Shown: piece after piece, positions 2,088-13,981 of the stretch
Layout of the letters: each line of letters begins with the position of its first letter
How positions within the stretch are numbered: the first letter of the stretch is position 1
From: Deinococcaceae bacterium
GTDB taxonomy: Bacteria > Deinococcota > Deinococci > Deinococcales > Trueperaceae
Assembly: GCA_040256005.1 (NCBI GenBank)
Contig: JBDZWC010000081.1
Coordinates: forward strand, 1 to 13,981
DNA length: 13,981 nucleotides
Direction: 5' to 3'
The notes under the pieces: model-generated
Told to the model about the DNA's origin: nothing
Databases searched by the model: none
What the model saw: the letters and a program-made list of their open reading frames with translations, nothing else
Translations under genes and position numbers: made by a program

Positions 2088-2423
2088 ATGGCGAGGACGC
2101 CGACCACCAACGACGTGTTCGCCGCCCTGTCCGACCCCGTGCGCCGTGACCTGATCGCGGCCATCGGTGACGGCGAGGCGACGGTGAGCGAGCTGGTGGA
2201 GCGACTCGACATCGCCCAGCCCCAGGTGTCCAAGCACCTGGCCGTGCTGCGCGAGAGCGGGCTGGTACGCGTCCGGCCCGAGGGCAAGTGGCGCTTCTAC
2301 AGCGTCAACGGCCCCGCTCTCGGGCCGGTCATCGACTGGGCCCAGAAGTTCCTCGGTGCCGTCAACGAGCGCTACGACCGCTTGGATGACCTGGTGACCG
2401 AGCTGAAAGAGGAGGGATCTTAG
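2088..2423 (+). CDS. ArsR/SmtB-family transcriptional regulator
   Basis: DVFAALSDPVRRDLI...TVSEL...IAQPQVSKHLAVLRESGLV...GKWRFYS is a typical ArsR winged-HTH. No Cys metal site, consistent with the SRPBCC-associated subtype. Confidence 0.93.
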   Translation: MARTPTTNDVFAALSDPVRRDLIAAIGDGEATVSELVERLDIAQPQVSKHLAVLRESGLVRVRPEGKWRFYSVNGPALGPVIDWAQKFLGAVNERYDRLDDLVTELKEEGS

Positions 2424-2933
2424 ATGACGAGGATCGACCGCAAAGGCAGCGCCAAGCTCACAGTCGTGTCTGATACCGCCTACGAGATCGTCAGGGAGTT
2501 CGACGCGCCCGCCGACCTGATCTTCCGGGCCCACACGGAGCCCGAGCTCGTGAAGCGCTGGTGGGGCTTCCCTTCGTTCCAGTGGTTGGAGTGCACGGTC
2601 GAGCCCTGGGCCGGCGGCAGATGGCGGTACTCGGCCAAGGAGGGCGACATGGAGGTCTCGTTCCACGGCCGCTTCCAAGAGGTCGTGCGACCGGGACGCA
2701 TCGTCAACACGGAGATCTACGAGGGAATGCCCGGCGTCACGCCCGAGACCGAGGAGGGCGGGGCGCTGAACACGAACGTCATCACCGAACGGGACGGCGT
2801 GACGACCCTGCATGTCCACGTGGAGTGCTTCTCGCCCGAGGTCCTCAAGATGATCCTCGACAGCGGCATGGAGAGCGGCATGCAGCTCTCCTACGACCGC
2901 ATGGAGGAGCTGGCCGTCCAACTGGCGGCGTGA
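2424..2933 (+). CDS. SRPBCC (START/Aha1/CalC-like) ligand-binding domain protein
   Basis: ATG immediately after the arsR TAG, with SD GAGGAGG. Motifs REFDAPADLIFRAHTEPELVKRWWG, GGRWRY, FHGRFQEVVRPGRIVNTE and SGMESGM...YDRMEEL. Confidence 0.92.
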   Translation: MTRIDRKGSAKLTVVSDTAYEIVREFDAPADLIFRAHTEPELVKRWWGFPSFQWLECTVEPWAGGRWRYSAKEGDMEVSFHGRFQEVVRPGRIVNTEIYEGMPGVTPETEEGGALNTNVITERDGVTTLHVHVECFSPEVLKMILDSGMESGMQLSYDRMEELAVQLAA

Positions 2934-3013
2934 TGCTGGCCGGCAGGCGGTCCGGCCCAAGACCCTGCGCCTCGCGCTGAGCCTCTGGCCTATGGTTGGG
3001 GGAGCATCCGAGA

Positions 3014-3042
3014 GGGCGTCGGGGACGAGTTCCCCGGCGCCC
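3014..3042 (+). other. GC-rich stem-loop in the SRPBCC-dinB intergenic region
   Basis: GGGCGTCGGGGA-cgagt-TCCCCGGCGCCC forms a 12-bp stem with one G-U pair, 8 nt upstream of SD GGAGG (3051-3055). No U-tract. Confidence 0.55.
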
Positions 3043-3059
3043 CGTCGGGCGGAGGTGGC

Positions 3060-3602
3060 ATGTCCTTCGAGATCGCGCACGCCATGCAAGTGCTCAGCCG
3101 CACACCGGGCACCCTGCGTCAACTTCTCCTGGGCCTGGATGACAGCTGGCTGCACGCCGACGAGGGTCCGGGAACCTTCAGCCCCTTCGAGGTCGTGGGT
3201 CATCTGCTCGAGGCCGAGGTCACGAACTGGCTGCCCCGGGCGCGGGTCATAAGGGCGGGCGACCCGAGCGCACCTTTCCCACCCTTCGACCGCTACGCTC
3301 ACCGCCGCCTGTACGCCGGGACGGCGCTGCCCGAGCTGCTGGACCGGTTCGCCGACCTGCGCGGCCAGAACCTGACCGAGGTGAAGTCCTGGGACCTTGG
3401 CCCCCAGGACCTGGCCGCCACGGCGCTGCATCCTCAGTTCGGCGAGGTGACGCTGCGCCAGCTGCTCTCGACCTGGACCGTGCATGACCTGGGGCACCTG
3501 GCCCAGATCGCCCGCGTCATGGCCAAGCGCTACCGCGACGACATCGGCCCCTGGGCGGCGTTCCTCCCTGTCGTGACGGACCGCCCGCAGCCCAGCGGCT
3601 GA
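3060..3602 (+). CDS. DinB/YfiT-family protein (putative metal-dependent thiol transferase fold)
   Basis: SD GGAGGT. Motifs LSRTPGTLRQLL, FSPFEVVGHLLEAE and WTVHDLGHLAQI supply the DinB-superfamily His metal ligands. Confidence 0.88.
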   Translation: MSFEIAHAMQVLSRTPGTLRQLLLGLDDSWLHADEGPGTFSPFEVVGHLLEAEVTNWLPRARVIRAGDPSAPFPPFDRYAHRRLYAGTALPELLDRFADLRGQNLTEVKSWDLGPQDLAATALHPQFGEVTLRQLLSTWTVHDLGHLAQIARVMAKRYRDDIGPWAAFLPVVTDRPQPSG

Positions 3603-3608
3603 GATCGC

Positions 3609-5174
3609 CTAGGTGCCGGCCGCGAGCCACCCGCGCAGCGCCTCTGTGTCCATGTCCCACAGCATCTCACCCAGGGGCACGCGCTCCACGGTGACCTCGG
3701 CACCTGCCTGGCGGAGCGCGGCCTCCACCGACTCTCCCTCGGCAAGGGCCGGGTCGCTCTCCCCGAGGACGAGCAGGACACGGGTGTGTTCGAGCACGGC
3801 ACCGTCGCCGCTGGCGGGCGCCGGCGCGGTGCGCGGCCGTAGCAGCGCGGCAGCCGCGAACGTTCCCGGGTAGGCCTGCAGAGCCGTCAGCGCCAGTAGC
3901 GCGCCGCCGGCGTGTCCCACCAACACCACGCCGGCGGCGTCGAAGTCGTAGAGCGCAGCGGCTTCCGCAACGGTCGACTCCAGCTCCCGCGCAGCCAGTC
4001 GCAGGTCGTACATGTCCGGGGACCCGTCGGCACCGAGCCTGACGAAGCTCGGCCTACCGCTCTCCAGCTCGTGTCCCCTCAGCGCCAGCAACGGAGCCTT
4101 GTGGTCTGCCTCCCGCGCCAGCGCCAGAAGCGATGTCTCGTCCCCACCTTCGCCGTGGAGCAGGACGAGGGTCCGGGGCGACGAGCCTGCCACGAACCGG
4201 TGCACGAACGACAGTTCGCGACGCGGTGCGCGCGGCTCGCCCGGCAAAGCGAACGCGGGCAGCACGGCCTCTATCTCGCCGCGCCGCGCCTCCAGGTCGG
4301 GAGGCAGCACGAGAGAGCCCCCCAGCGATGGGAGCGGCTCGTCCACAGTGAAGCCGGGCCCGTCGCTCGCGACCTCGATGATCGCCCCCGACGGCTCCTT
4401 GAAGTACGCGGAACGGAAGTAGCCGTGCTCACGCAGGGTGCTGAGCCCGAGCAGACCTCGCTCCGGATGCTCTCTGAGCCTGGTCGGGAACCCGTCCATG
4501 TCGCGGCGGAAGGCGACATGATGCAGCGTTCCCACTCCGCCGGAGGACGGCCAAAAGCCCGAGGCGTCGCGCACGTACACGGTGTTGCCGCGTCCGGCGG
4601 CCGACCGGAACGTTCGAACCGAGTCAGTCTCCTCCGCCGCATCGAAGCCGAGTAGGCCCGTGAGCACCCTGGCCGTCTCCTCGACGGTGTCAGACCAGAA
4701 CGTCACGTGGTGCAGACCCCGCACGGACGCCTCGTTCGGCACGTCGGAGCCGGGCACCGCGCCTACAGGGGGCGGAGGGTTCTCGATGCCGACGAGCACT
4801 AGCGGCAACCCGTCGGGGTCCTCTAAAGACAGCGTGGTCAGGCCGCCCTTGGCGGCAGGACCTCCGAACCGCACGCCACGCTCCAGCAGACGCTCGTACC
4901 AGGTGCCGATATGCGACCTCGGCACGATGAGGCCAACCTCGGCCGCCTGACCGATGCCCCTCCTGCCCTTTGCGGTGTCCGGCCAGGCGAAGAACGTGAG
5001 CACGGTGCCAGGGCTCCCGACCGCGTCCCCGTAGAAGAGGTGGAGGGTGGCGGGATCCTGATGGTTGACGGTGCGCTTCACCAGACGCAGCCCCAGCAGG
5101 CCGACGTAGAAGTCGACGTTCGCCTGGACGTCGCCGGTGATGCCGGTGACGTGATGCAGCCCGCTGGGTTCCAT
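3609..5174 (-). CDS. Ring-cleavage VOC dioxygenase (MhqO/PcpA/LinE-like) fused to a C-terminal phospholipase/carboxylesterase-like alpha/beta domain
   Basis: Likely ATG at 5174 (MEPSGLHHVTGI). VOC motifs LRLVKRTVN, HLFYGD, LTFFAWP, TLHHVAF, YFRSAYFKEPSG and EVASDGPGF. C-terminal domain LVLLHGEGGDETSL...GESDP resembles the MhqD-type carboxylesterase. Confidence 0.88.
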   Translation of the reverse strand: MEPSGLHHVTGITGDVQANVDFYVGLLGLRLVKRTVNHQDPATLHLFYGDAVGSPGTVLTFFAWPDTAKGRRGIGQAAEVGLIVPRSHIGTWYERLLERGVRFGGPAAKGGLTTLSLEDPDGLPLVLVGIENPPPPVGAVPGSDVPNEASVRGLHHVTFWSDTVEETARVLTGLLGFDAAEETDSVRTFRSAAGRGNTVYVRDASGFWPSSGGVGTLHHVAFRRDMDGFPTRLREHPERGLLGLSTLREHGYFRSAYFKEPSGAIIEVASDGPGFTVDEPLPSLGGSLVLPPDLEARRGEIEAVLPAFALPGEPRAPRRELSFVHRFVAGSSPRTLVLLHGEGGDETSLLALAREADHKAPLLALRGHELESGRPSFVRLGADGSPDMYDLRLAARELESTVAEAAALYDFDAAGVVLVGHAGGALLALTALQAYPGTFAAAALLRPRTAPAPASGDGAVLEHTRVLLVLGESDPALAEGESVEAALRQAGAEVTVERVPLGEMLWDMDTEALRGWLAAGT

Positions 5175-5273
5175 GCGCCCATCTTGAAGCACCACGTCGG
5201 CGTTGGCTCGTCATCAGGTGATGGTTGTCCCACCGAGGTGAACTTCGAACACAGCAGCCCTCCCACGGGGCGC

Positions 5274-5288: not shown

Positions 5289-6242
5289 GTGACCAGGACG
5301 CTCAACAAGGCGAACCGGCTCAAGGAGATGGAGAAGCTCCTCGCGCTCAAGCCCTACACCGTCTCCGAGCTCGCCGGCAAGTTCGGCGTGTCGCGCCGGA
5401 CGATCGAGCGGGACCTGGGCGACCTGCGGGAGACGACCCCCCTCGATCAGGACGGGCCCCGGTACCGGGTCCGGGCGACCGGTTCGGCCCTCAACGCGGT
5501 CGAGGCTCTGGCCGTGCACAGCGCCACCCGGTTGTTGGTCCACACGGGCGTGGGCGAGTCGCACTACCGAAGCGCCCTGCGCAAGCTTGCTCACCAGCTC
5601 CCCGAGCCGGCGCGGACAGCCCTGGCTTCCGCTGTGGACGGGCTCGAGACCAAGCGCAACGACCGCACGCTCGACCTGGTCGCTCAGGCCTGGTTCGGTG
5701 GCCGCGTCCTGCGCTGCGACTACCGACCAGCCAGCTCGGAGAAGCGCTACCGCCACGAGTACGAGATCTACTTCTACGAGCTCAACCGCCGGAACCTCCA
5801 ACCCTACGTGATCGCCAGGGAGAGGCTCTACTTCAAGCGCGTCGGGGCGTTCCGCCTATCGCGCATGCACGACGCCGCGCTCCTCGAGGACCGCTACGAG
5901 ATCCCGCCCGACTTCGACCCGCTCGAGTACCTCGAGGGCGCCTGGGGGATCACCGTGGAGGGTGAACCTGTCGAGGTGCGCCTGTGGGCTCACCCTTCGG
6001 TGGCGAGCTGGTTCCTGGAGCAACAAGAGGTAGACAGGAGCGTCGAGGTCGCGGGTCGCCGCCCCGATGGTTCCCTCGACGTCAGGCTCAAGGGGCGACT
6101 CTCCAAGGATGGCGACGCCCACGAACTGCTGTCGTTCATCCTCGGCTGGGGCTCCATGGTGCAGGTCATGGGTCCGGTCGCCGTACGCGACCGTGTGGCC
6201 GCGGAGGTCGCGGCGGCAGCGGGTATGTACACCGGGAACTGA
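5289..6242 (+). CDS. HTH-WYL-WCX transcriptional regulator (PafBC/DriD/YafY-like)
   Basis: N-terminal wHTH TVSELAGKFGVSRRTIERDL. WYL domain (RVLRCDY...PYVIA...AFRLSRM) retains the FRxxR nucleic-acid-binding arginines. Linker YEIPPDFDPLEYLEGAWGI, then WCX (ELLSFILGWGSMVQVMGPVAVRDRV). Confidence 0.93.
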   Translation: MTRTLNKANRLKEMEKLLALKPYTVSELAGKFGVSRRTIERDLGDLRETTPLDQDGPRYRVRATGSALNAVEALAVHSATRLLVHTGVGESHYRSALRKLAHQLPEPARTALASAVDGLETKRNDRTLDLVAQAWFGGRVLRCDYRPASSEKRYRHEYEIYFYELNRRNLQPYVIARERLYFKRVGAFRLSRMHDAALLEDRYEIPPDFDPLEYLEGAWGITVEGEPVEVRLWAHPSVASWFLEQQEVDRSVEVAGRRPDGSLDVRLKGRLSKDGDAHELLSFILGWGSMVQVMGPVAVRDRVAAEVAAAAGMYTGN

Positions 6243-6297
6243 GGCACATCACTGATCGTCGCGGCGCCAGCACGCGCTCTGCGGGATCCGGGCGCGC

Positions 6298-6849
6298 TCA
6301 GGTGGCGGGTCGCACCTCGGCAGGCTCGCGTACCGAGTGAGGGTTCTCCAAGTACTCGTCCCACCTGGCGAGGCGCTCGAGGTCGATGCCCGGGTCAGCC
6401 AGCCGACTTTCGACCAGGGCGGTGAACTCGTCGTTGAAGGGCGTCGGTCTCCCTCGCCACCACGAGGCCACGCCTGGCTGAGCGATCCACCACGCCAGCG
6501 TCCGCTCCCAGCGCTCCCACACATGAGAGGGCAGGGCACCTGAGCGCATCTGGTCGTACATGAACTCGATCGCGCCGAAGATCTCGTAGAAGGTCCAGGT
6601 GAACTGGATGCGCTCCTCGACGGTGAGCAGGCGTGTGTCCATGGCACCACGGGCGAAGACGTTCGCGAGCCTCTCGCTCTCGGACAGGCGAGCCTGGACG
6701 GCTGCCAGGCGTGCGAGGGCCTGAGCGTAGTTCTGCGCGCGCAACGTGCGGGTCTGTTGCCTGACCTGGAAAGCGAGCCCCAGTAGCGAGAGCGTGACGG
6801 CAAGGACGCTGACGGCCGTCCCGATGAGCTGTGTCGTCGATGAATCCAC
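6298..6849 (-). CDS. Hypothetical protein with one N-terminal transmembrane helix
   Basis: 183-aa GTG-start ORF with natural-looking composition that fills the gap between WYL and sbcD. Hydrophobic LIGTAVSVLAVTLSLLGLAF followed by QVRQQTR, then a Trp-rich helical domain. Confidence 0.75.
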   Translation of the reverse strand: MDSSTTQLIGTAVSVLAVTLSLLGLAFQVRQQTRTLRAQNYAQALARLAAVQARLSESERLANVFARGAMDTRLLTVEERIQFTWTFYEIFGAIEFMYDQMRSGALPSHVWERWERTLAWWIAQPGVASWWRGRPTPFNDEFTALVESRLADPGIDLERLARWDEYLENPHSVREPAEVRPAT

Positions 6850-6938
6850 CGCACAAGCTTCGTTTCCGGGGCCGGGGGTTGCAAGGGGGTCCCGAGGACC
6901 CAGCCTTCACCCGGCGTCGGCTCGAATGGCGGCGAACA

Positions 6939-6971
6939 GCGACGCTTCCTGTCGCACCTCGGGGTTACGTT
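6939..6971 (+). promoter_or_regulatory. Putative WYL-activator-dependent promoter: dyad GCGAC-N7-GTCGC plus TGTCGC-N10-TACGTT (-10)
   Basis: GCGAC 6939-6943 and GTCGC 6951-6955. TGTCGC at 6950-6955, then exactly 10 nt, then TA-cgt-T at 6966-6971. The implied TSS near 6978 lies just upstream of SD AAGGGGGA (6980-6987). Confidence 0.6.
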
Positions 6972-6981
6972 TGTGGCCGAA
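6965..6981. promoter_or_regulatory. RDRM (DdrO operator)-like 17-mer TTACGTTTGTGGCCGAA overlapping the -10/TSS
   Basis: Fits the recalled 17-bp Deinococcus RDRM pattern TT(A/C)YGY-N5-RCR(T/G)AA with a single mismatch at position 14. Confidence 0.4.
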
Positions 6982-6993
6982 GGGGGACAGGCT

Positions 6994-8181
6994 TTGCGTT
7001 TCATCCACACGGCGGACTGGCACTTGGGGAAGCGGCTCCACGACTTCTCGCTTCATGAGGTTCAGAAGGAGCTGATCGAGTCGTTCGTGCGGCTCGTGAA
7101 CGAGGTGGAGCCGGACGCCGTGATCGTCGCTGGAGACGTCTTCGACACGCACGTGCCGCAGCTCACCGCCCTCGAGCTGTGGGAGAACGCGGTCGAAGCC
7201 ATCGTCGCCGAGGCGGGCGTCCCCATGCTGGTGATCCCCGGCAACCATGACCACCCGGACCGTATGTCCGCCCACCATGGCATCGCCAAACGCGCCGGCC
7301 TTCACTTCGTGCGGTCGCTGGCCGACTGTCCGACGCCCGTCACCATCGACGGGGTCGATATCTACGGCGTGCCGTTCCACAAGCCCGTTCACGTGAACGC
7401 CGCGTACCGTGATGAGCCACCTGGAGTGGGCGACTTCGACTACGGCTCGGCCATGGCGTGCGTGCTGGCCCGGCTGATGCGTGCGGAAGGACGGCCGGCG
7501 ATCCTGGTCGCGCACGCGTTCGTCGAGGGCTCCGGCGACGAACCGGATGGCGAGGACGCCATCATGGTCGGTGGTGCCGGCGGCGTGCCCGTATCTTCCT
7601 TCGTCGGCTTCGACTACGTGGCGCTCGGCCACATCCACGGCCCGCGCAGGCTCGGCGACGAGGGCGAGGTGCACTACTCCGGGTCGCTCTTCCCGTACTC
7701 GTTCAAAGAAGGCGTCTCCTCGGCCCTGGACGGCGCCGCGCCGCAGGGCGGCGGTGTGAAGGGCGTGAACGTGGTCGAGGTCCTCTCGAACGGGGCGGTG
7801 GACCGCGAGTTCGTGCCGCTCGGGGCCAGTCGCCGGGTCCAGGTCATCGACGGGCTCACGTTCGACGAGCTGATCAAGCGGGCGCGGACCCTTGACGACC
7901 GTGAACGCCAGCACTACACCCTCGCGCGCATCTCCGATCAAGGCCCCGTGCAGAACGCCATCGCGGAGCTGCGCGAGGTGCTGCCGAACGCGGTGCTGGA
8001 GCAGCCCAACGTCTCGGTCGCAGAGTCGGTCGCGCGCCTCCGCGGTGATCACAGGACCATCTCGCCCGAGGACGCCCTCAAGCAGCTCTACGCACAGGTG
8101 TATGGCGAGGACATGTCCGCCCTCGAACTCGAGATCCTGGAAGAGATCGCCGGCGGTAGGCAAGAGGAGGCGGCGGCGTGA
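6994..8181 (+). CDS. sbcD: SbcD (Mre11-like) metallophosphoesterase nuclease subunit
   Basis: Likely start is TTG at 6994, 6 nt after SD AAGGGGGA, giving the canonical MRFIHTADWHLG N-terminus (the track starts at 6973). All phosphoesterase motifs present: DWHLG, GDVFD, GNHD, AHAF, LGHIH, YSGS. Confidence 0.95.
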   Translation: MRFIHTADWHLGKRLHDFSLHEVQKELIESFVRLVNEVEPDAVIVAGDVFDTHVPQLTALELWENAVEAIVAEAGVPMLVIPGNHDHPDRMSAHHGIAKRAGLHFVRSLADCPTPVTIDGVDIYGVPFHKPVHVNAAYRDEPPGVGDFDYGSAMACVLARLMRAEGRPAILVAHAFVEGSGDEPDGEDAIMVGGAGGVPVSSFVGFDYVALGHIHGPRRLGDEGEVHYSGSLFPYSFKEGVSSALDGAAPQGGGVKGVNVVEVLSNGAVDREFVPLGASRRVQVIDGLTFDELIKRARTLDDRERQHYTLARISDQGPVQNAIAELREVLPNAVLEQPNVSVAESVARLRGDHRTISPEDALKQLYAQVYGEDMSALELEILEEIAGGRQEEAAA

Positions 8182-11162
8182 GGCCCATCCGCCTCACCAT
8201 GCGCGCCTACGGCCCCTACGCGGGCGAGCAGGTCGTCGACTTCGAGCGGCTGGGCGCGCACGGCCTGTTCCTGATTCACGGACGCACCGGGTCGGGCAAG
8301 AGCACTGTGCTGGACGCCATGTGCTTCGCCCTGTACGGGGAGACGAGCGGGAACGAGCGCGAGGGCAAGGACGCCGTCTCGACCCTTGACCCGTTCGGCG
8401 GGACGGTGGTCGAACTGGAGTTCGAGCACGTGGGCAGGCTCTACCGCGTGAGGCGTGGGCCCGACCAGGAACGACCCAAGAAGCGTGGAGCGGGGACGAC
8501 GACTCAGAAGCACTGGGCGGAGCTGCTCGACGTCACCGACGGTCAGAAGGTCTTGTCCGATAAGGTCTCGGGCGTCACCTCTGCCGTGAGCGAGCTGCTG
8601 CGCTGCGACGCCGGTCAGTTCAGACAGACGATCGTCCTGCCGCAAGGGGAGTTCCGGAAGGTCGTCACCGACGACGGTTCGCGGCGCGCCATCCTCACCA
8701 AGGTGTTCGGCACCGGTAGGTTCCAGAGGTTCGTCGACGCCCTGAAGGCCAAGCACAACGCGCTCATGCGCGACGGGCAGGTGAACGAGAGCAAGCGACG
8801 GGAGATCCTGGACGGGCTGGGCGCCACCGATCGCGAGGCCGTTTCGAAGCTTCTCGAAGACGCGCAGAAGGCTACGGAAACAGCCTTGTCCGAGAAGCAG
8901 CGGCTGGACGTCCTCAAGCTGTCGGCCCGGGCCGAGATGACGGCGGGCGAGACCCTCGCCGACGAGTTCGACGCGTTGGTACAGGCTCACGAACAGTCTG
9001 CGCGGCTCGAGGCGCGGGCCCATGAGATGGAGGCGGAGGCTGCCTCGCTAGAGGCCGCCCGCCGAGCGGAAGCGCTGAGCGACGCGCGGCGCAACCTCGC
9101 AGAGAAGGTCGGGGAACGCGACGGACTCATCAGGGAACTAGCAGACGCGGAGCAGCGGGCAAGCGAAGCAGCCGCTCACTTGGCGACGGCGGAAGAGGCG
9201 GTCGAGGCGCTCGAGCCGGAGAGACCCCGCCTCGAGGCGTTGCAGAACGAAGCGTCTCGTCTGGGGCACCTCGAAGCGGCCGTGGCTGGTGCCGCCCAGA
9301 CGCGGAAGGACCTCGAGGAGGCGAAGGTCGTCCACATGGGCGCGCGGGCGGACCTTGAGCAGGCCCGCGAGGACCTCGCCCAGGTGGAATCGGAACTCAA
9401 GGGCGTCAAGGCCCGGTTGAAAGCGGCCAGCGCTGCAGCGGAATCGGCGCACGACGCACGCGAGCGGCATCGGCAGGCGAAGGACAGCCTCGCAGCGGCC
9501 GAGAAGCTGGCAGACCTGGCGGGCAGGTTCGAGGCGGCGGAAGCCGAGCTGAAGCGGCTGACGAAGGGCGACGACCCGCTTGCTGCAGCGCTCGCACAGA
9601 TCGTGATCCACGCCCCGGGACTCCTCGCCGAGGACCTAGTGGAGGGCGACGCATGCCCGGTCTGCGGCAGCACGGAGCATCCCGCTCTCGCCCACGGCCA
9701 CGGGCGCGAGAGCGTTGCCTCGGTCATGGCCCGTTTCGGGTCGGCTGCGGGCGAGGTCGCCGACCTGAGAGCGAAGAGGCGCGAGCTAGAAGAGCGGATC
9801 GACGAGGTACGGGCAACTCAGGGCTGGAGCGAGGGCGCTCCGGCAGAGGCGGATCTGGCGCAGGCGCTGGACCAGGCCGAGGCAGTCGTCAAGGCGGCCG
9901 AGGGCGCCGTCGAAGCCCTCGAGAGCCTGCAGGCAGACGTCTCTCGCCTGGAAGGCGAAGCCGAGAACCTTGCGAAGCTGGTGGAACAGCGCGCCGAGGC
10001 GGAGAGGAAGGCTGCGGAGCAGGTCGTGAAGCTCGAGAGCGCCGCGGAGACCGCGGTCAAGGACCTGCCGGCCGACCTGCGAGACTCGGACGCCTTCGCT
10101 ACGGCGCTGCAGGACGCCCAGAAGGCGGCCGAAGCCCTCGCCCAGCGGTTCACCGCCGCCGCCGAAGAGTTGGAAGCGGCGAAGCGGGCCGTGAGCGATG
10201 CCAGCAAGGACGTGACCAACCTGACCGGTCGCCTCGAGACGGCAAAAGAGGACGTCTCCGCTCGCGCCGCAGAGTTCGACGAGCGCCTGAAGGTCGCCGG
10301 TTTCTCCTCGCTGAAAGAGCTGGACGCCGCGGCGTTGCCGGCAGAGGATCTGGCCGAGCGCGAGAAGGACCTGAAGAGCTACGGGGAGGAGAGGCTAGCG
10401 GCCGCCACCACCGTGTCGGACCTGGAGAAGAAGCTCAGAGGTCGCGAGCGTCCTGATCTTGTTGCGCTGCGCGCTGCACTGGACTCGGCGACCGACGCCG
10501 CAGAGCAGGCGGCCAACGCTTGGAACGTCGCGTCCAATAGGGCCGCGAAGATCGCCGACAGCCTGGGTCGCTACGACGCGCTCATGAAGCAGGACGCAGC
10601 GCTCGAGGAGCGCAAGCGCGCGGCCAAGCGGCTCTACGACCTCGCCACTGGTCAGGTGAAGGGCGAGTCGCGGATGGACCTGCAGACGTTCGTGCTGCGC
10701 TCGATCTTCGGCGAGGTGCTCGCGCACGGCAACGCGCACCTCAGGCACATGACGGCCGGGCGGTACCAGCTCGCCCTCAAGGAGCCGGAGAGCGCCTCGG
10801 ACACCGGACTCGAGCTGAACGTCCACGACTCGTTCAGCGGCGGCGCCGTAAGACCCGTCCGCACGCTCTCCGGTGGTGAGGGCTTCCTCGCGAGCCTCGC
10901 CCTGGCCCTCGGCCTGGCCGAGGTCGCCCAGCAGCAGAGCGGTGCGGTCGACCACGGGGCGCTGTTCATAGACGAGGGCTTCGGCAGCCTCGACTCGGCC
11001 GCGCTGGACAACGCCGTGGGGATCCTGCGCGGCCTTCAGGCCAGCCACCGGATGGTCGGCATAATCAGCCACGTAGACGAGCTCAAGAAGCGGATACCCG
11101 TTCAGCTGCTCGTCCATGCCGGCGCGGAAGGCAGCCAGCTGGAGGTGCGCGTCAACGCGTGA
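8178..11162 (+). CDS. sbcC: SbcC (Rad50-like) SMC-family ATPase
   Basis: GTGA overlap with sbcD and SD GAGGAGG. Walker A GRTGSGKST, Q-loop VLPQGEF, long coiled coils, central zinc hook CPVC (9654-9665, residue 493 of 994), signature LSGGE, Walker B LFIDEGFGSLD and H-loop IISH. Confidence 0.96.
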   Translation: MRPIRLTMRAYGPYAGEQVVDFERLGAHGLFLIHGRTGSGKSTVLDAMCFALYGETSGNEREGKDAVSTLDPFGGTVVELEFEHVGRLYRVRRGPDQERPKKRGAGTTTQKHWAELLDVTDGQKVLSDKVSGVTSAVSELLRCDAGQFRQTIVLPQGEFRKVVTDDGSRRAILTKVFGTGRFQRFVDALKAKHNALMRDGQVNESKRREILDGLGATDREAVSKLLEDAQKATETALSEKQRLDVLKLSARAEMTAGETLADEFDALVQAHEQSARLEARAHEMEAEAASLEAARRAEALSDARRNLAEKVGERDGLIRELADAEQRASEAAAHLATAEEAVEALEPERPRLEALQNEASRLGHLEAAVAGAAQTRKDLEEAKVVHMGARADLEQAREDLAQVESELKGVKARLKAASAAAESAHDARERHRQAKDSLAAAEKLADLAGRFEAAEAELKRLTKGDDPLAAALAQIVIHAPGLLAEDLVEGDACPVCGSTEHPALAHGHGRESVASVMARFGSAAGEVADLRAKRRELEERIDEVRATQGWSEGAPAEADLAQALDQAEAVVKAAEGAVEALESLQADVSRLEGEAENLAKLVEQRAEAERKAAEQVVKLESAAETAVKDLPADLRDSDAFATALQDAQKAAEALAQRFTAAAEELEAAKRAVSDASKDVTNLTGRLETAKEDVSARAAEFDERLKVAGFSSLKELDAAALPAEDLAEREKDLKSYGEERLAAATTVSDLEKKLRGRERPDLVALRAALDSATDAAEQAANAWNVASNRAAKIADSLGRYDALMKQDAALEERKRAAKRLYDLATGQVKGESRMDLQTFVLRSIFGEVLAHGNAHLRHMTAGRYQLALKEPESASDTGLELNVHDSFSGGAVRPVRTLSGGEGFLASLALALGLAEVAQQQSGAVDHGALFIDEGFGSLDSAALDNAVGILRGLQASHRMVGIISHVDELKKRIPVQLLVHAGAEGSQLEVRVNA

Positions 11163-13981
11163 GCCGTTCGAGTCAGGGGGCGCTGTTCGCGGCCGACCAG
11201 GAGGCGCTGTTCGCCCCCCGGGACGTCGGCTCGAAGCGGACAGTGGTCCTCGCGGTCGACCCGCTCACGACGGCGCGGGCTCACCTTTCCGGCAGGACCG
11301 TACTGACGCCCAACGAGCGGGCCGCCAGGGCTTTGCTAGGCCGCAGGGTCGGCTCCGTGAGCCTCGCAGAGCGCGCCGTCAGGGCACTACGCTCCCGGGG
11401 GACTCACGTCGCCAGCCCCCTGGAGCGGCTCATGGTGCTGCGGCAGGTCGTCGCGGCGGACGGCTCGTGGGCGGACGTACGCGGTACCGCTCGCCGCCTC
11501 GAGCCCGTGGTCAGCGAGCTTCTACGCGCGGGCTTGGGCGTGCGTCCCCATCTGTCGGCCGCTCTGCGCGCGAGCACCGACGTGGCTCCGCGCACCACGA
11601 GGGTCGCCGAGTTGGCCGTCTCCTACTCACGGCTCCTGGCCCAGAGAGGCGAGGTGGACCCCGCCGAGGCGCTATGGCTCGGAGCGACCGCCGTGCAGGA
11701 GCAAGGGCCTCTACTCACTTACGGGTACTCGCGGTTGGGCGCAGCGGAGACCGCGTTCCTCGCCGCGCTAGCCGGTGACGGATCGGTGCTGGTCTTGCCG
11801 GCGGGCTTCTCGTCGAGCGACGAGGCGGCCGCGGCGCTTTCTGCCCTGGGCTGGGACCTGCAGCGCGACGAGCGGGCAGGTCTCGAAGTAGGTCCGCTAG
11901 TGGCGGAAGCGTTCACCCGGTCTGTCACAGCCCCGGCGGGAGCGACGGAGCGCGCCCAGACAGCGGCGACCGGCACACCGGATGGGCTCGCTGCTCTCCT
12001 CCTGGCCGACCAGGAAGAAGAGGTTCGGTGGGTGCTGGCGCGCGTCAAGGCGCTACTGGCCTCGGGTGCGCTCGCCGACGACGTCGTGCTGGTGGCACGC
12101 GACGAGAGGTCCTACGGGCCGCTCGTACGCGCCGTGGCCGCCGAGTTCGCCATCCCCGTCAGGTTGGCCTACGCGGTGCCGCTCAAGGAATCGCGGCTGG
12201 GAGAGGTCGCAACCGGTCTGGTGGCTGCCGTGGGCCGCAGGCTCCCGTTCGAGGAGACGGCCAGGCTCCTGCGACACCCGCTGGTGCGGGCGTTGACCGA
12301 CGAGGCGTGGGTCACGGCACGGGCCTGGCACCCTGAAGGGCCCGGGGAGTGGGGGAACGCCGGCGCCGCCGTCGCAGGCCTCCTCGACTGGCCCGCCAAG
12401 TCGACCTGGCAGGGTTACCGGGAGCTGTTCGAGGCGACGCTCGAGGGCTTGGGCGTCGCGGGCAGGGCCGAGGGCAGGGACAGGCGCGCGCTGGCTCGTC
12501 TGCTCAAGTCGCTGCGGCACGCCGCGCCCCCGGGCGGTGCCAAGGATGAAGCCGCGACGCTCGGCGACTTCCTAGCCCTGCTCACCGACGTGATCGAGAC
12601 CGCCGTCCTACCCGTCGACCCGCCGGGGCGGGGGGCGGTGGAGCTGCACACTCCGCTCGCCGTGTTCGGCGCGCGGTACGAGCACGTGTTCGTCCTCGGC
12701 CTGAGCGAGGGCGTCTTCCCTCAAGCCGTCAGGGAAGACCCGGTCATCGACTTCATGGAGCGGCGCGCGCTGGCTGGACTGGGCTTGAAGCTGGAAGACG
12801 CCGAGGGTGCTGCAGAGCGCGAGGAGCTGTCGTTCCTGGCGGTCCTGCATGCCGCCGGCTCGAGCCTCACGCTCACCGCACCGCGCATGGCGGGGAGCTC
12901 GGAGCGCCTCCCCAGCCCGTACCTGGCTGCCGCCGGCGTAACCGAGGACCTGCGGGTAGGGCCGCGGCCACCGGCCAGCGCGCTGGAGGAGCTGATCGTG
13001 CGGTTGCCGGGCGCAACGGGCGCAGCGGCACGCGCTTGGGGCGTCGAGCGCCGGCGCGAGAGCGCCCAGCAGCCCGACGCGCACGACGGCATCACGGGCG
13101 AACCGGTACACGTCAGCGGACCTTTCAGCGCGACGCAGCTGACTACCTTCGGGCAGTGCTCGTTCCGCTGGTTCGGACAGCACGGGCTGCGACTATCGGA
13201 GGTGACCGAGGCCGAGGAGGAGGTCACGTCCCTGACGGCCGGGTCGGTCTTCCACGACACTCTCAAGACCGCCGTCGAACGCGTCATGCGCCGTGGCGAC
13301 GCGTTCGCCACCGGCGACCCAGAGACGTTCCGGACCGCGGTGATGGAGGAGCTCGAGGCGGCGTACGAGGCGGCGCATGAGGAGCGCGAGAAGCGGGGCG
13401 AGCGGGTTCGGTCCAAGACATGGCCGCTTCAGAAGGGTGAGAACCTGGACAAGCTGAGGCGACTCGTGCGGTCCGCCGACTTCATCCTGGCTGGGTCGCG
13501 CGTCGCCGACCTCGAGAAGGGTTTCCGGGCCACCTGGCGTGGGATCCCCGTCCGGGGCGTCGTCGACCGCATCGACGTCGAGCGGACGCCCGACGGCGAG
13601 AGGCTTCTGCTCACCGATTACAAGCTGGGCAAGTCCGCTCCGAGGGGCGCCAAGGGGCCACGGGGCACGCTGAACCTCGACGTGCAGCTACCCCTCTACA
13701 TCGAGGCGGCTGCCCCCGCGCTCCACCCGGGTGCACAGGTAGGGGCCGCTCGCTACCTCTCTATCAACGGGGCGAACGTCAGCAAGGTGGTCGACCCGGC
13801 GAAGGTCGACTCGGCTGCGCTGGACGGGCTCGTGGCTCGGTTCCGTACGGCGCTGGCGGGCGGCGCGTTCCCGCTCGACCCGGATCCCAGGCAGGAGGCG
13901 TGCCAGTACTGTCCGTTCGACCCCGTCTGCCGCCGCGGTCCACGGCTGCCCCTACGGAGCGGGGTGGATCGCCGCTCGTTC
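11159..13981 (+). CDS. addB: AddB/RexB-like protein: inactivated helicase-like N-terminus plus iron-staple PD-(D/E)XK nuclease; 3' end beyond window
   Basis: Translated by hand: 941 codons without a stop from the GTG at 11159 (GTGA overlap with the sbcC stop; GGAGGT upstream). AddB-like segments DQEEEVRWVLARVK, DDVVLVARDERSY, YEHVFVLGLSEGVFP, PSPYL, FSATQLTTFGQCSFRWF, GSVFH, RGVVDRID, TDYK and DVQLPLY. Four Cys: TGC at 13157, then CQYC-PFDPV-C at 13901-13930. Confidence 0.88.
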   Translation, partial: MSRSSQGALFAADQEALFAPRDVGSKRTVVLAVDPLTTARAHLSGRTVLTPNERAARALLGRRVGSVSLAERAVRALRSRGTHVASPLERLMVLRQVVAADGSWADVRGTARRLEPVVSELLRAGLGVRPHLSAALRASTDVAPRTTRVAELAVSYSRLLAQRGEVDPAEALWLGATAVQEQGPLLTYGYSRLGAAETAFLAALAGDGSVLVLPAGFSSSDEAAAALSALGWDLQRDERAGLEVGPLVAEAFTRSVTAPAGATERAQTAATGTPDGLAALLLADQEEEVRWVLARVKALLASGALADDVVLVARDERSYGPLVRAVAAEFAIPVRLAYAVPLKESRLGEVATGLVAAVGRRLPFEETARLLRHPLVRALTDEAWVTARAWHPEGPGEWGNAGAAVAGLLDWPAKSTWQGYRELFEATLEGLGVAGRAEGRDRRALARLLKSLRHAAPPGGAKDEAATLGDFLALLTDVIETAVLPVDPPGRGAVELHTPLAVFGARYEHVFVLGLSEGVFPQAVREDPVIDFMERRALAGLGLKLEDAEGAAEREELSFLAVLHAAGSSLTLTAPRMAGSSERLPSPYLAAAGVTEDLRVGPRPPASALEELIVRLPGATGAAARAWGVERRRESAQQPDAHDGITGEPVHVSGPFSATQLTTFGQCSFRWFGQHGLRLSEVTEAEEEVTSLTAGSVFHDTLKTAVERVMRRGDAFATGDPETFRTAVMEELEAAYEAAHEEREKRGERVRSKTWPLQKGENLDKLRRLVRSADFILAGSRVADLEKGFRATWRGIPVRGVVDRIDVERTPDGERLLLTDYKLGKSAPRGAKGPRGTLNLDVQLPLYIEAAAPALHPGAQVGAARYLSINGANVSKVVDPAKVDSAALDGLVARFRTALAGGAFPLDPDPRQEACQYCPFDPVCRRGPRLPLRSGVDRRSF
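11174..11214 (+). repeat. Tandem 17-nt direct repeat (period 24) encoding QGALFA / QEALFA
   Basis: cagggggcgctgttcgc (11174-11190) versus caggaggcgctgttcgc (11198-11214), one mismatch. Confidence 0.7.

Follow-up and report, generated by a model that had tools for sequence, protein, structure and literature searches.

We describe a predicted DNA-repair operon, apparently under the control of a transcription factor with a WYL domain, on a contig of a Deinococcaceae bacterium of the family Trueperaceae (JBDZWC010000081.1 of assembly GCA_040256005.1). The window that was analysed is this entire contig, C24 of genome G000, at its full length of 13,981 nucleotides (nt); the assembly amounts to 3.1 Mb in 250 contigs and is 96.8% complete. 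Judging from the sequence, we consider it reasonably probable that sbcD, sbcC and an addB-like gene (addB2) in the window, continued by an addA gene (addA2) on contig C150, form a repair operon that is activated by single-stranded DNA (ssDNA), is independent of LexA and generates 3' tails.

According to this scheme, the WYL protein would bind ssDNA at DNA breaks and would then activate sbcD-sbcC-addB-addA from a palindromic box just upstream of the -10 element. SbcCD would trim blocked or hairpin ends, the AddA2 motor would unwind, and only the AddB2 nuclease would cut. By analogy to Bacillus subtilis, the 5'-ended strand would be removed, leaving long 3' tails for RecA without the need for Chi. 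The extra ssDNA would keep the activator on, a feedback through the ligand and not through expression of the WYL gene, and the operon would function alongside a LexA-type regulon distinct from it.

Gene order and promoter of the operon

The features on which the argument depends are as follows, with the basis of each in brackets.

5289..6242, + strand: winged helix-turn-helix (wHTH)-WYL-WCX transcription factor, 317 aa (open reading frame (ORF), Pfam, structure match, tree)
6298..6849, - strand: intervening gene for a 183-aa hypothetical protein, outside the operon (ORF; no Pfam match; orthologues in G006 and G008)
6939..6955, + strand: palindromic operator GCGAC-N7-GTCGC, predicted WYL activator site (sequence, conservation, top site of a position weight matrix (PWM))
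6966..6971, + strand: predicted -10 hexamer TACGTT, 11 nt past the GTCG half-site (sequence; TA-N3-T spacing in orthologous promoters)
6994..8181, + strand: sbcD, Mre11-like nuclease, likely TTG start (TIGR00619, PF12320, motifs)
8178..11162, + strand: sbcC, Rad50-like ATPase (Pfam AAA_23, SbcC_Walker_B, motifs)
11159..13948, + strand: addB2, AddB-like, with its 3' end on contig C150 (PF12705, motifs, bridge to C150)
13949..13981, no strand: contig tail at which public contigs part from the window (runs X1 and X2 have loose ends at 13948)

The first-pass annotation of the window had described a WYL gene upstream of three co-oriented sbcD-sbcC-addB-like genes, and this order is present in the sequence. 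All four genes point the same way, and the GTGA stop/start overlaps were confirmed at 8178-8181 (sbcD/sbcC) and 11159-11162 (sbcC/addB-like); in the ORF list of the window the addB-like frame spans 11159 to the contig end. The gap of about 750 bp that had been reported between the WYL gene and the operon is not empty, since it contains the opposite-strand gene at 6298-6849. The start of sbcD is most likely the TTG at 6994, which is preceded by AAGGGGG (6980-6986) and at which the orthologues start, and not the GTG at 6973.

The WYL-type box that had been noticed in the operon promoter was also borne out. It reads CGAC-N7-GTCG (6940-6954), followed after 11 nt by TACGTT (6966-6971), and is the sole perfect match in the 3.1 Mb assembly; shuffling the 144-nt intergenic region 200,000 times produced such a box in 46 cases. 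A repeat search overlooked it, its arms being shorter than the seed length. When G000 was scanned with a PWM trained on genomes other than G000, the box scored 38.8 bits and the next site 21.2. In orthologous promoters the palindrome and TA-N3-T are preserved at a constant distance while the intervening bases vary, and the box is conserved ahead of sbcD or addB in relatives. A sigma-70 scan of the promoter returned no -35/-10 promoter and no consensus -35.

This arrangement has published precedents (papers cited by PMC number were accessible in part, and statements on them cover those parts). The DriD site, ATACGAC-N7-GTCGTAT, overlaps the -35 at a constant distance to the -10 (PMC13004042), and its gap to the -10 is likewise 11 nt, as read from the promoter sequences in the methods of that paper and not from a figure. 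The PafBC motif, TGTCGG-N10-TA-N3-T (PMC8151990), gives the same gap as the window box. As predicted from sequence, the layout is thus that of the DriD/PafBC activators, with the site, which has the form CGXC-N7-GXCG, at the putative -35 position.

A genome-wide regulon of the PafBC kind was considered and rejected: TGTC-N12-TA-N3-T occurs 28 times in G000, other spacings give 12-28, and the PWM finds one strong site. The window box was absent from both recA 5' ends of G000. It was also absent ahead of the WYL gene itself, so that any feedback would operate solely via ssDNA. Elsewhere in relatives, the same box precedes genes for an AAA ATPase (G006), an exonuclease/endonuclease/phosphatase protein (G097), a YbjN-domain protein (G029) and a DinB-family protein (G034) (loci L153, L304, L119 and L142).

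The WYL regulator

In the protein encoded at 5289-6242, the HTH_11, WYL and WCX domains each scored above the Pfam cut-off. Its best solved-structure match was DriD (residues 6-310, E 4e-4), the nearest solved structures being DriD and PafC; neither CapW nor BrxR was found among the matches up to E 1. DriD reads bases through R37, E40 and R41 (PMC10853764), and these align to R37, E40 and R41 of the window protein, R37 and R41 being invariant in 33/33 homologues. In the structure-match alignment, seven of the 11 ssDNA contacts listed for DriD are identical. It is likely, from these comparisons, that the protein is a DriD-type activator, and it is likewise predicted to sense ssDNA.

Co-occurrence of the box and the WYL gene

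The distribution of these elements was followed in a family set of 128 genomes, made up of the genus of G000 (12 genomes, G000 included) and 116 others; an unpublished genome, G120, is counted in the tallies for WYL and for the resident-type sbcD. Matches to the WYL clade came from 56 genomes, those to the window type of sbcD from 32 and those to addB2 from 64. The first-pass annotation had asked whether the WYL adjacency holds in relatives, and in the genus it does, the WYL gene adjoining the operon in 8/12 genomes: directly upstream of sbcD in G000, G001, G002, G004 and G008, and directly upstream of addB2 in G003, G005 and G006. The WYL-to-sbcD match distance is only about 70-125 bp in G001, G002, G004 and G016. 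In G011 the WYL gene is on a separate contig and the box is still kept; no WYL match was found in G007, G009 or G010, and the addB2 of G007 has no box. Outside the genus, adjacency by coordinates was seen in 1/116 genomes (G016). The suggested module thus stands as a linkage within one genus and one further genome, and is neither self-contained nor widespread.

Upstream of the window-type sbcD, which occurs in 31 other genomes, 29 regions were fetched and 27 scored (G130 has no upstream DNA and G071 was not located). The box lies ahead of sbcD in 8/11 genomes with the WYL clade and in 0/16 without it. In G069 and G139 box and sbcD are found together although the WYL gene is on another contig, and where the two are unlinked (G011, G024, G069 and G139) the WYL protein apparently acts in trans. 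The box geometry, the conserved base-reading residues and this co-occurrence across genomes argue together for the WYL control of the operon that had been suggested at first.

In G006 (L113:5380-5440), the WYL gene, the box and a leader that resembles the sbcD ribosome-binding region of G002 lead straight into addB2. The sequence suggests that sbcDC was deleted in the G006 branch.

SbcCD

SbcD scored 137 bits against TIGR00619 (cut-off 77.65) and matched the PF12320 C-terminal domain, and its metal-binding motifs DxH, GDxFD, GNHD and GHxH are intact. SbcC matched Pfam AAA_23 and SbcC_Walker_B, and scored 244 against TIGR00618, under the cut-off of 478.5. It has the build of a split ABC ATPase with a coiled coil and a CxxC hook, adjoining sbcD, and carries Walker A, the CPVC zinc hook, the LSGGE signature and the IDEG Walker B.

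A separate housekeeping sbcCD had been named as something to look for. No resident-type sbcD was found in the G000 assembly, an absence that is not proven given its completeness and its number of contigs. The resident type is present in 67/128 family genomes and the window type in 32/128, both occurring in one (G002); of the genus genomes, five carry the window type alone and four the resident type alone. The window SbcCD thus appears to replace the housekeeping SbcCD, a pattern which favours a role in repair. What the assembly does hold, at C215:2-4233, is a distant Mre11-like gene with a partner ORF for an ATPase-like protein of 991 or more aa, distinct from both SbcCD types; the Mre11-like protein is 26% identical to the resident SbcD.

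AddB2 and AddA2

The best PDB match of the AddB2 profile was B. subtilis AddB (E 1.4e-11), and PF12705 was matched. The cysteines C667, C915, C918 and C924 and the D-DYK-QLxxY motif are invariant in 9/9 sequences. No N-terminal Walker A (GxxxxGK[ST]) was found in AddB2, and it fell far under the cut-off of the NCBIfam addB models. Its closest AddB-like relatives, 56-68% identical, come from records titled Trueperaceae, Deinococcaceae or uncultured bacterium.

The gene continues on C150. Public contigs exit the window at 13948 into the start of the C150 reverse strand (X1, X2), and contigs on C150 extend back into the window addB (X2, X3 and X5, from two studies). addA2 begins 56 nt into the C150 reverse strand, and addB2 and addA2 are adjacent in relatives. 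Over its final 33 bases (13949-13981) the window diverges from the public contigs, which leave at 13948 into the C150 addA; this tail is probably an assembly tip or another allele.

AddA2 has 870 aa with UvrD (superfamily 1A) helicase domains and has no C-terminal nuclease domain; it stops 57-65 aa past helicase motif VI in 8/8 genus copies. Orthologues in Acidobacteriota, cyanobacteria and Deinococcus plasmids run about 280-300 aa further with a PD-(D/E)XK domain, which in many of the longer orthologues, also from Armatimonadota, ends in a CxxC...C motif. The tails are degenerate in G020, G027 and G034, and a handful of distant copies are short as well. A search for a separate nuclease gene found none. 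In the B. subtilis enzyme, the 3'-ended strand is cut by the nuclease of AddA and the 5'-ended strand by that of AddB (PMC3321194); by analogy, AddA2B2 would leave 3' tails without Chi.

A complete second AddAB, whose AddA has a nuclease, lies on C40, and that addA is present in 12/12 genus genomes; AddA2B2 is therefore a second machine. The C40 addA was rejected as the partner of the operon, since it has its own addB and is the addA type found throughout the genus.

Other damage-response elements in the genome

The palindrome CCT(T/A)A-N5-T(A/T)AGG occurs four times in G000, before a uvrB-like gene, both lexA-like genes and one DinB-like gene; the names uvrB and dinB are read from the translations. 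Sites resembling CCTTA-N5-TAAGG lie at C27:3163, C29:7207, C93:2688, C132:68527 and the end of C240. With one mismatch, the palindrome precedes one recA copy of G000, and it precedes that same copy in five relatives. It is a candidate SOS box of the lineage, to go by its sequence. It was not found in the window promoter, and the WYL operon therefore looks separate from the LexA-type regulon. No match of the IrrE/PprI type was found.

The reading that G000 lacks recA was rejected: there are two recA 5' ends, located where C240 and C241 end, a situation shared by relatives. Across the genus, recA is present as two near-identical copies with different promoters, and it breaks assemblies at the gene (C240/C241 ends; L090-L107). 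The public runs over the locus are contigs and probably DNA. A single run that is on record as RNA covers 2/30 bins, and tells nothing either way on expression.

Alternative explanations

Several observations weigh against an ssDNA-activated repair operon. Among the ssDNA contacts, R204, Y240 and R288 differ in the window protein and W206 is replaced by Phe. Positions 153 and 155 are Arg in only 5/33 homologues each, two of the seven identical contacts are poorly conserved in the 33 homologues, and only Y145, Y173 and K/R189 are broadly kept in them. Three of the 11 WYL-positive genomes have no box before sbcD, and the Fisher values of 7e-5 and 2e-11 overstate, as kin genomes do not count as independent. 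Near addB2 (within 400 nt) the box is found in just 4/20 WYL-positive versus 1/27 WYL-negative genomes (the latter a weak one), which means that addB2 is often outside WYL control. In genus g11, the WYL gene is present in 17/18 genomes and both target genes are missing in 18/18; the WYL family must therefore have other outputs. The strand polarity assigned to AddB2 comes from analogy only. Finally, AddB2/AddA2 homologues on plasmids adjoin CRISPR, BREX, McrBC and toxin-antitoxin genes.

This last point leads to the main rival, which we regard as unlikely: that the operon is one of ssDNA-induced defence, in which the WYL protein would sense ssDNA from invaders or damage and induce nucleases against linear or hairpin-ended foreign DNA. 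The plasmid and cas3 contexts of the WYL and AddB2 relatives are its main support. In a 43-row tree, the repair-linked WYL proteins form a supported Trueperaceae clade, and the cas3-linked ones, which in Deinococcota are the closest kin of the window protein, lie across a branch supported 100/99; the tree, its root not being fixed, gives no direction of rewiring. Published sources already list WYL genes next to cas3 in Thermus (PMC5529391, table; PMC4012209). Between these sister WYL genes and type I cas3, the box is found in its strict layout at 6/12 loci and as the core palindrome at 8/12, against a background of about 0.01 per 170 nt. On plasmid pTT27 of Thermus thermophilus HB8 (L312), boxes at 6934-6965 and 9738-9769 lie before cas3 and casA, downstream of the WYL gene TTH_RS10940, with the form CGWC-N7-GTCG, 11 nt, TA-N3-T. 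Deinococcus plasmids (L310, L313, L314 and L190) carry addB2, addA2, a gene for a 145-aa hypothetical protein and a WYL gene, followed by McrBC, BREX or an Mre11-like pair; upstream of this cassette lie CGTC-N7-GACG palindromes, singly or in tandem. On Thermus plasmids, addB2-addA2 comes after type I-U CRISPR genes without such a box. In all, AddB2 homologues are on 20 plasmid records and the addB2-addA2 pair is patchy across phyla. A hidden Markov model search near addB2 at 46 loci gave no WYL outside Deinococcota, all five matches being from the window lineage. Against defence, the genes around the genus loci are ordinary metabolic and regulatory ones, addB2 is retained in 11/12 genus genomes, the genome has the window SbcCD as its sole canonical one, and loss of the AddA nuclease should lower, not increase, destructive capacity. 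No cas1 was found in the G000 genome. With PADLOC 2.0, no system had all its core genes matched and there was no convincing match for sbcD or addB: SbcC matched as generic SMC-like only, AddB not at all, and the WYL protein as the WYL part of Cas3c. The first-pass annotation had left the choice between repair and the destruction of linear foreign DNA; repair is now favoured in this lineage, and destruction is less likely because AddA2 has no nuclease and there is no canonical SbcCD in the genome other than this one.

The remaining alternatives concern the sign, the reader or the currency of the box. A CapW/BrxR-type repressor sitting over the -35 and released by ssDNA would give the same damage induction with the opposite sign. 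ssDNA-released WYL repressors of defence operons do exist (PMC11662680), the box overlaps the -35 position, and the sister proteins are defence-linked. We nevertheless find repression improbable, as a repressor would find no consensus -35 to block, the spacing of 11 nt to TA-N3-T, constant across genera, fits activators, and the solved-structure matches favour DriD and PafC over CapW and BrxR. We give rather little credence to the box being read by another factor, such as the WYL protein encoded on C40, with the neighbouring WYL gene linked by descent only. In its favour, an unrelated gene sits between the WYL gene and the promoter, the WYL gene and the operon are on different contigs in G011, a second WYL protein exists, and many HTH-WYL proteins have RRT-ERD-like helices. 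On the other hand, the box is missing before sbcD in each of the 16 genomes without this WYL clade, and the same box follows the sister WYL genes ahead of different target genes. Moreover, the C40 protein has Arg at the E40 position, where the E40K change lowered DriD binding 83-fold (PMC10853764). Least credible of all to us is a constitutive housekeeping cluster like addAB-sbcCD of B. subtilis with the box as a decaying relic. Other genera do have these genes with neither WYL nor box (G020, G034, G124 and G125), but throughout the genus, and also in G016, G069 and G139, the spacer bases have changed and the box and -10 have been retained.

Neighbouring genes

The protein encoded at 6298-6849 has a hydrophobic N-terminal stretch and is without a Pfam match. 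Its orthologues are 83% identical in G006, where the gene is in the same place, and 74% in G008, where it lies upstream of the WYL region. Its look-alikes in the Atlas are unnamed clusters, one of them with DUF6082 in 11% of its members. At 2088-5195 of the window, ArsR-AHSA1-DinB_2 genes and a glyoxalase-esterase fusion accompany the WYL gene in several relatives, and they stay with it in G011, where the operon has moved away.

Significance and comparison with known systems

More speculatively, there may be one Deinococcota WYL family with one operator that couples ssDNA sensing to type I CRISPR-Cas in Thermus or, in this Trueperaceae lineage, to a captured SbcCD and an AddAB with a helicase-only AddA that resects only the 5' strand; this wider idea is a tentative one, which we hold with some doubt. 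If it is true, AddA2B2 would make 3' tails independently of Chi and feed its own activator, and ssDNA would turn on the type I-E CRISPR-Cas of T. thermophilus HB8 by way of the two boxes that precede cas3 and casA. A single sensor and operator would then serve repair in one lineage and immunity in another. The findings point to a Deinococcota DNA-damage circuit apart from LexA and PprI/DdrO, and a natural AddAB without the AddA nuclease predicts single-strand-selective resection. These implications are bounded in that neither the parts nor the logic is new, the host has not been cultured and the linkage spans a narrow taxonomic range.

In a literature search, with most subscription papers outside its reach, the WYL-box-sbcDC-addBA arrangement was not found in print, nor was a helicase-only AddA under a WYL box or a shared box before Thermus cas genes. 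No paper was found on the TTH_RS10940 box or on the function of that regulator, TTHB186 being mentioned only in passing in the accessible text. The novelty that had been suggested thus appears to hold for the local arrangement. It does not hold for its logic, as PafBC induces adnAB, so that WYL activators driving resection genes are known (PMC8682763, PMC8151990), and an addAB-sbcCD cluster is known from B. subtilis. DriD has been proposed to sense ssDNA made by AddAB (PMC9186387), and DdaA connects the damage response with defence in Moraxellaceae (PMC12392091).

Compared with DriD of Caulobacter crescentus, the window protein shares the full-length wHTH-WYL-WCX architecture, R37/E40/R41 and the CGAC-N7-GTCG site at the -35, and is identical at 7 of the 11 listed ssDNA contacts. 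It differs in its weak overall similarity and in R204, Y240 and R288, which are not kept. The DriD targets named in the accessible parts of the sources are didA, bapE, recJ, dnaG and CCNA_03891, and not sbcCD or addAB, and, unlike the window WYL gene, DriD carries a site within the region of its own promoter. The mycobacterial PafBC, through adnAB, offers a WYL activator with GTCG-N11-TA-N3-T and LexA-independent control of an end-resecting helicase-nuclease. PafBC is, however, a heterodimer with a large global regulon, whereas here there is a single gene, the assembly contains one strong site, and a different palindrome is carried by recA, uvrB and lexA in G000.

TTH_RS10940, beside type I-E cas3 of T. 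thermophilus HB8, is about 42% identical and has the same box and -10 spacing, but its target is CRISPR-Cas and it falls in a separate, well-supported WYL clade. CapW and BrxR resemble the window protein as WYL regulators that adjoin their target operons, ssDNA sensing being shown for CapW; they repress defence systems, whereas the window promoter layout fits activation, and they gave no solved-structure match.

The addB-addA-sbcD-sbcC operon of B. subtilis unites the same four gene families (PMC1533848). As in its AddAB, AddB2 has a RecB-family nuclease with four Fe-S cysteines, and the AddA helicase gene adjoins addB. In contrast to B. subtilis, the order here is sbcD-sbcC-addB-addA, a WYL box lies upstream, a second complete AddAB is present, AddB2 has no N-terminal Walker A and AddA2 has no nuclease. 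Measured against these systems, the operon would work like a DriD-type circuit, its SbcCD is a member of the known family, and its AddAB is a variant that departs from the B. subtilis type in two features.

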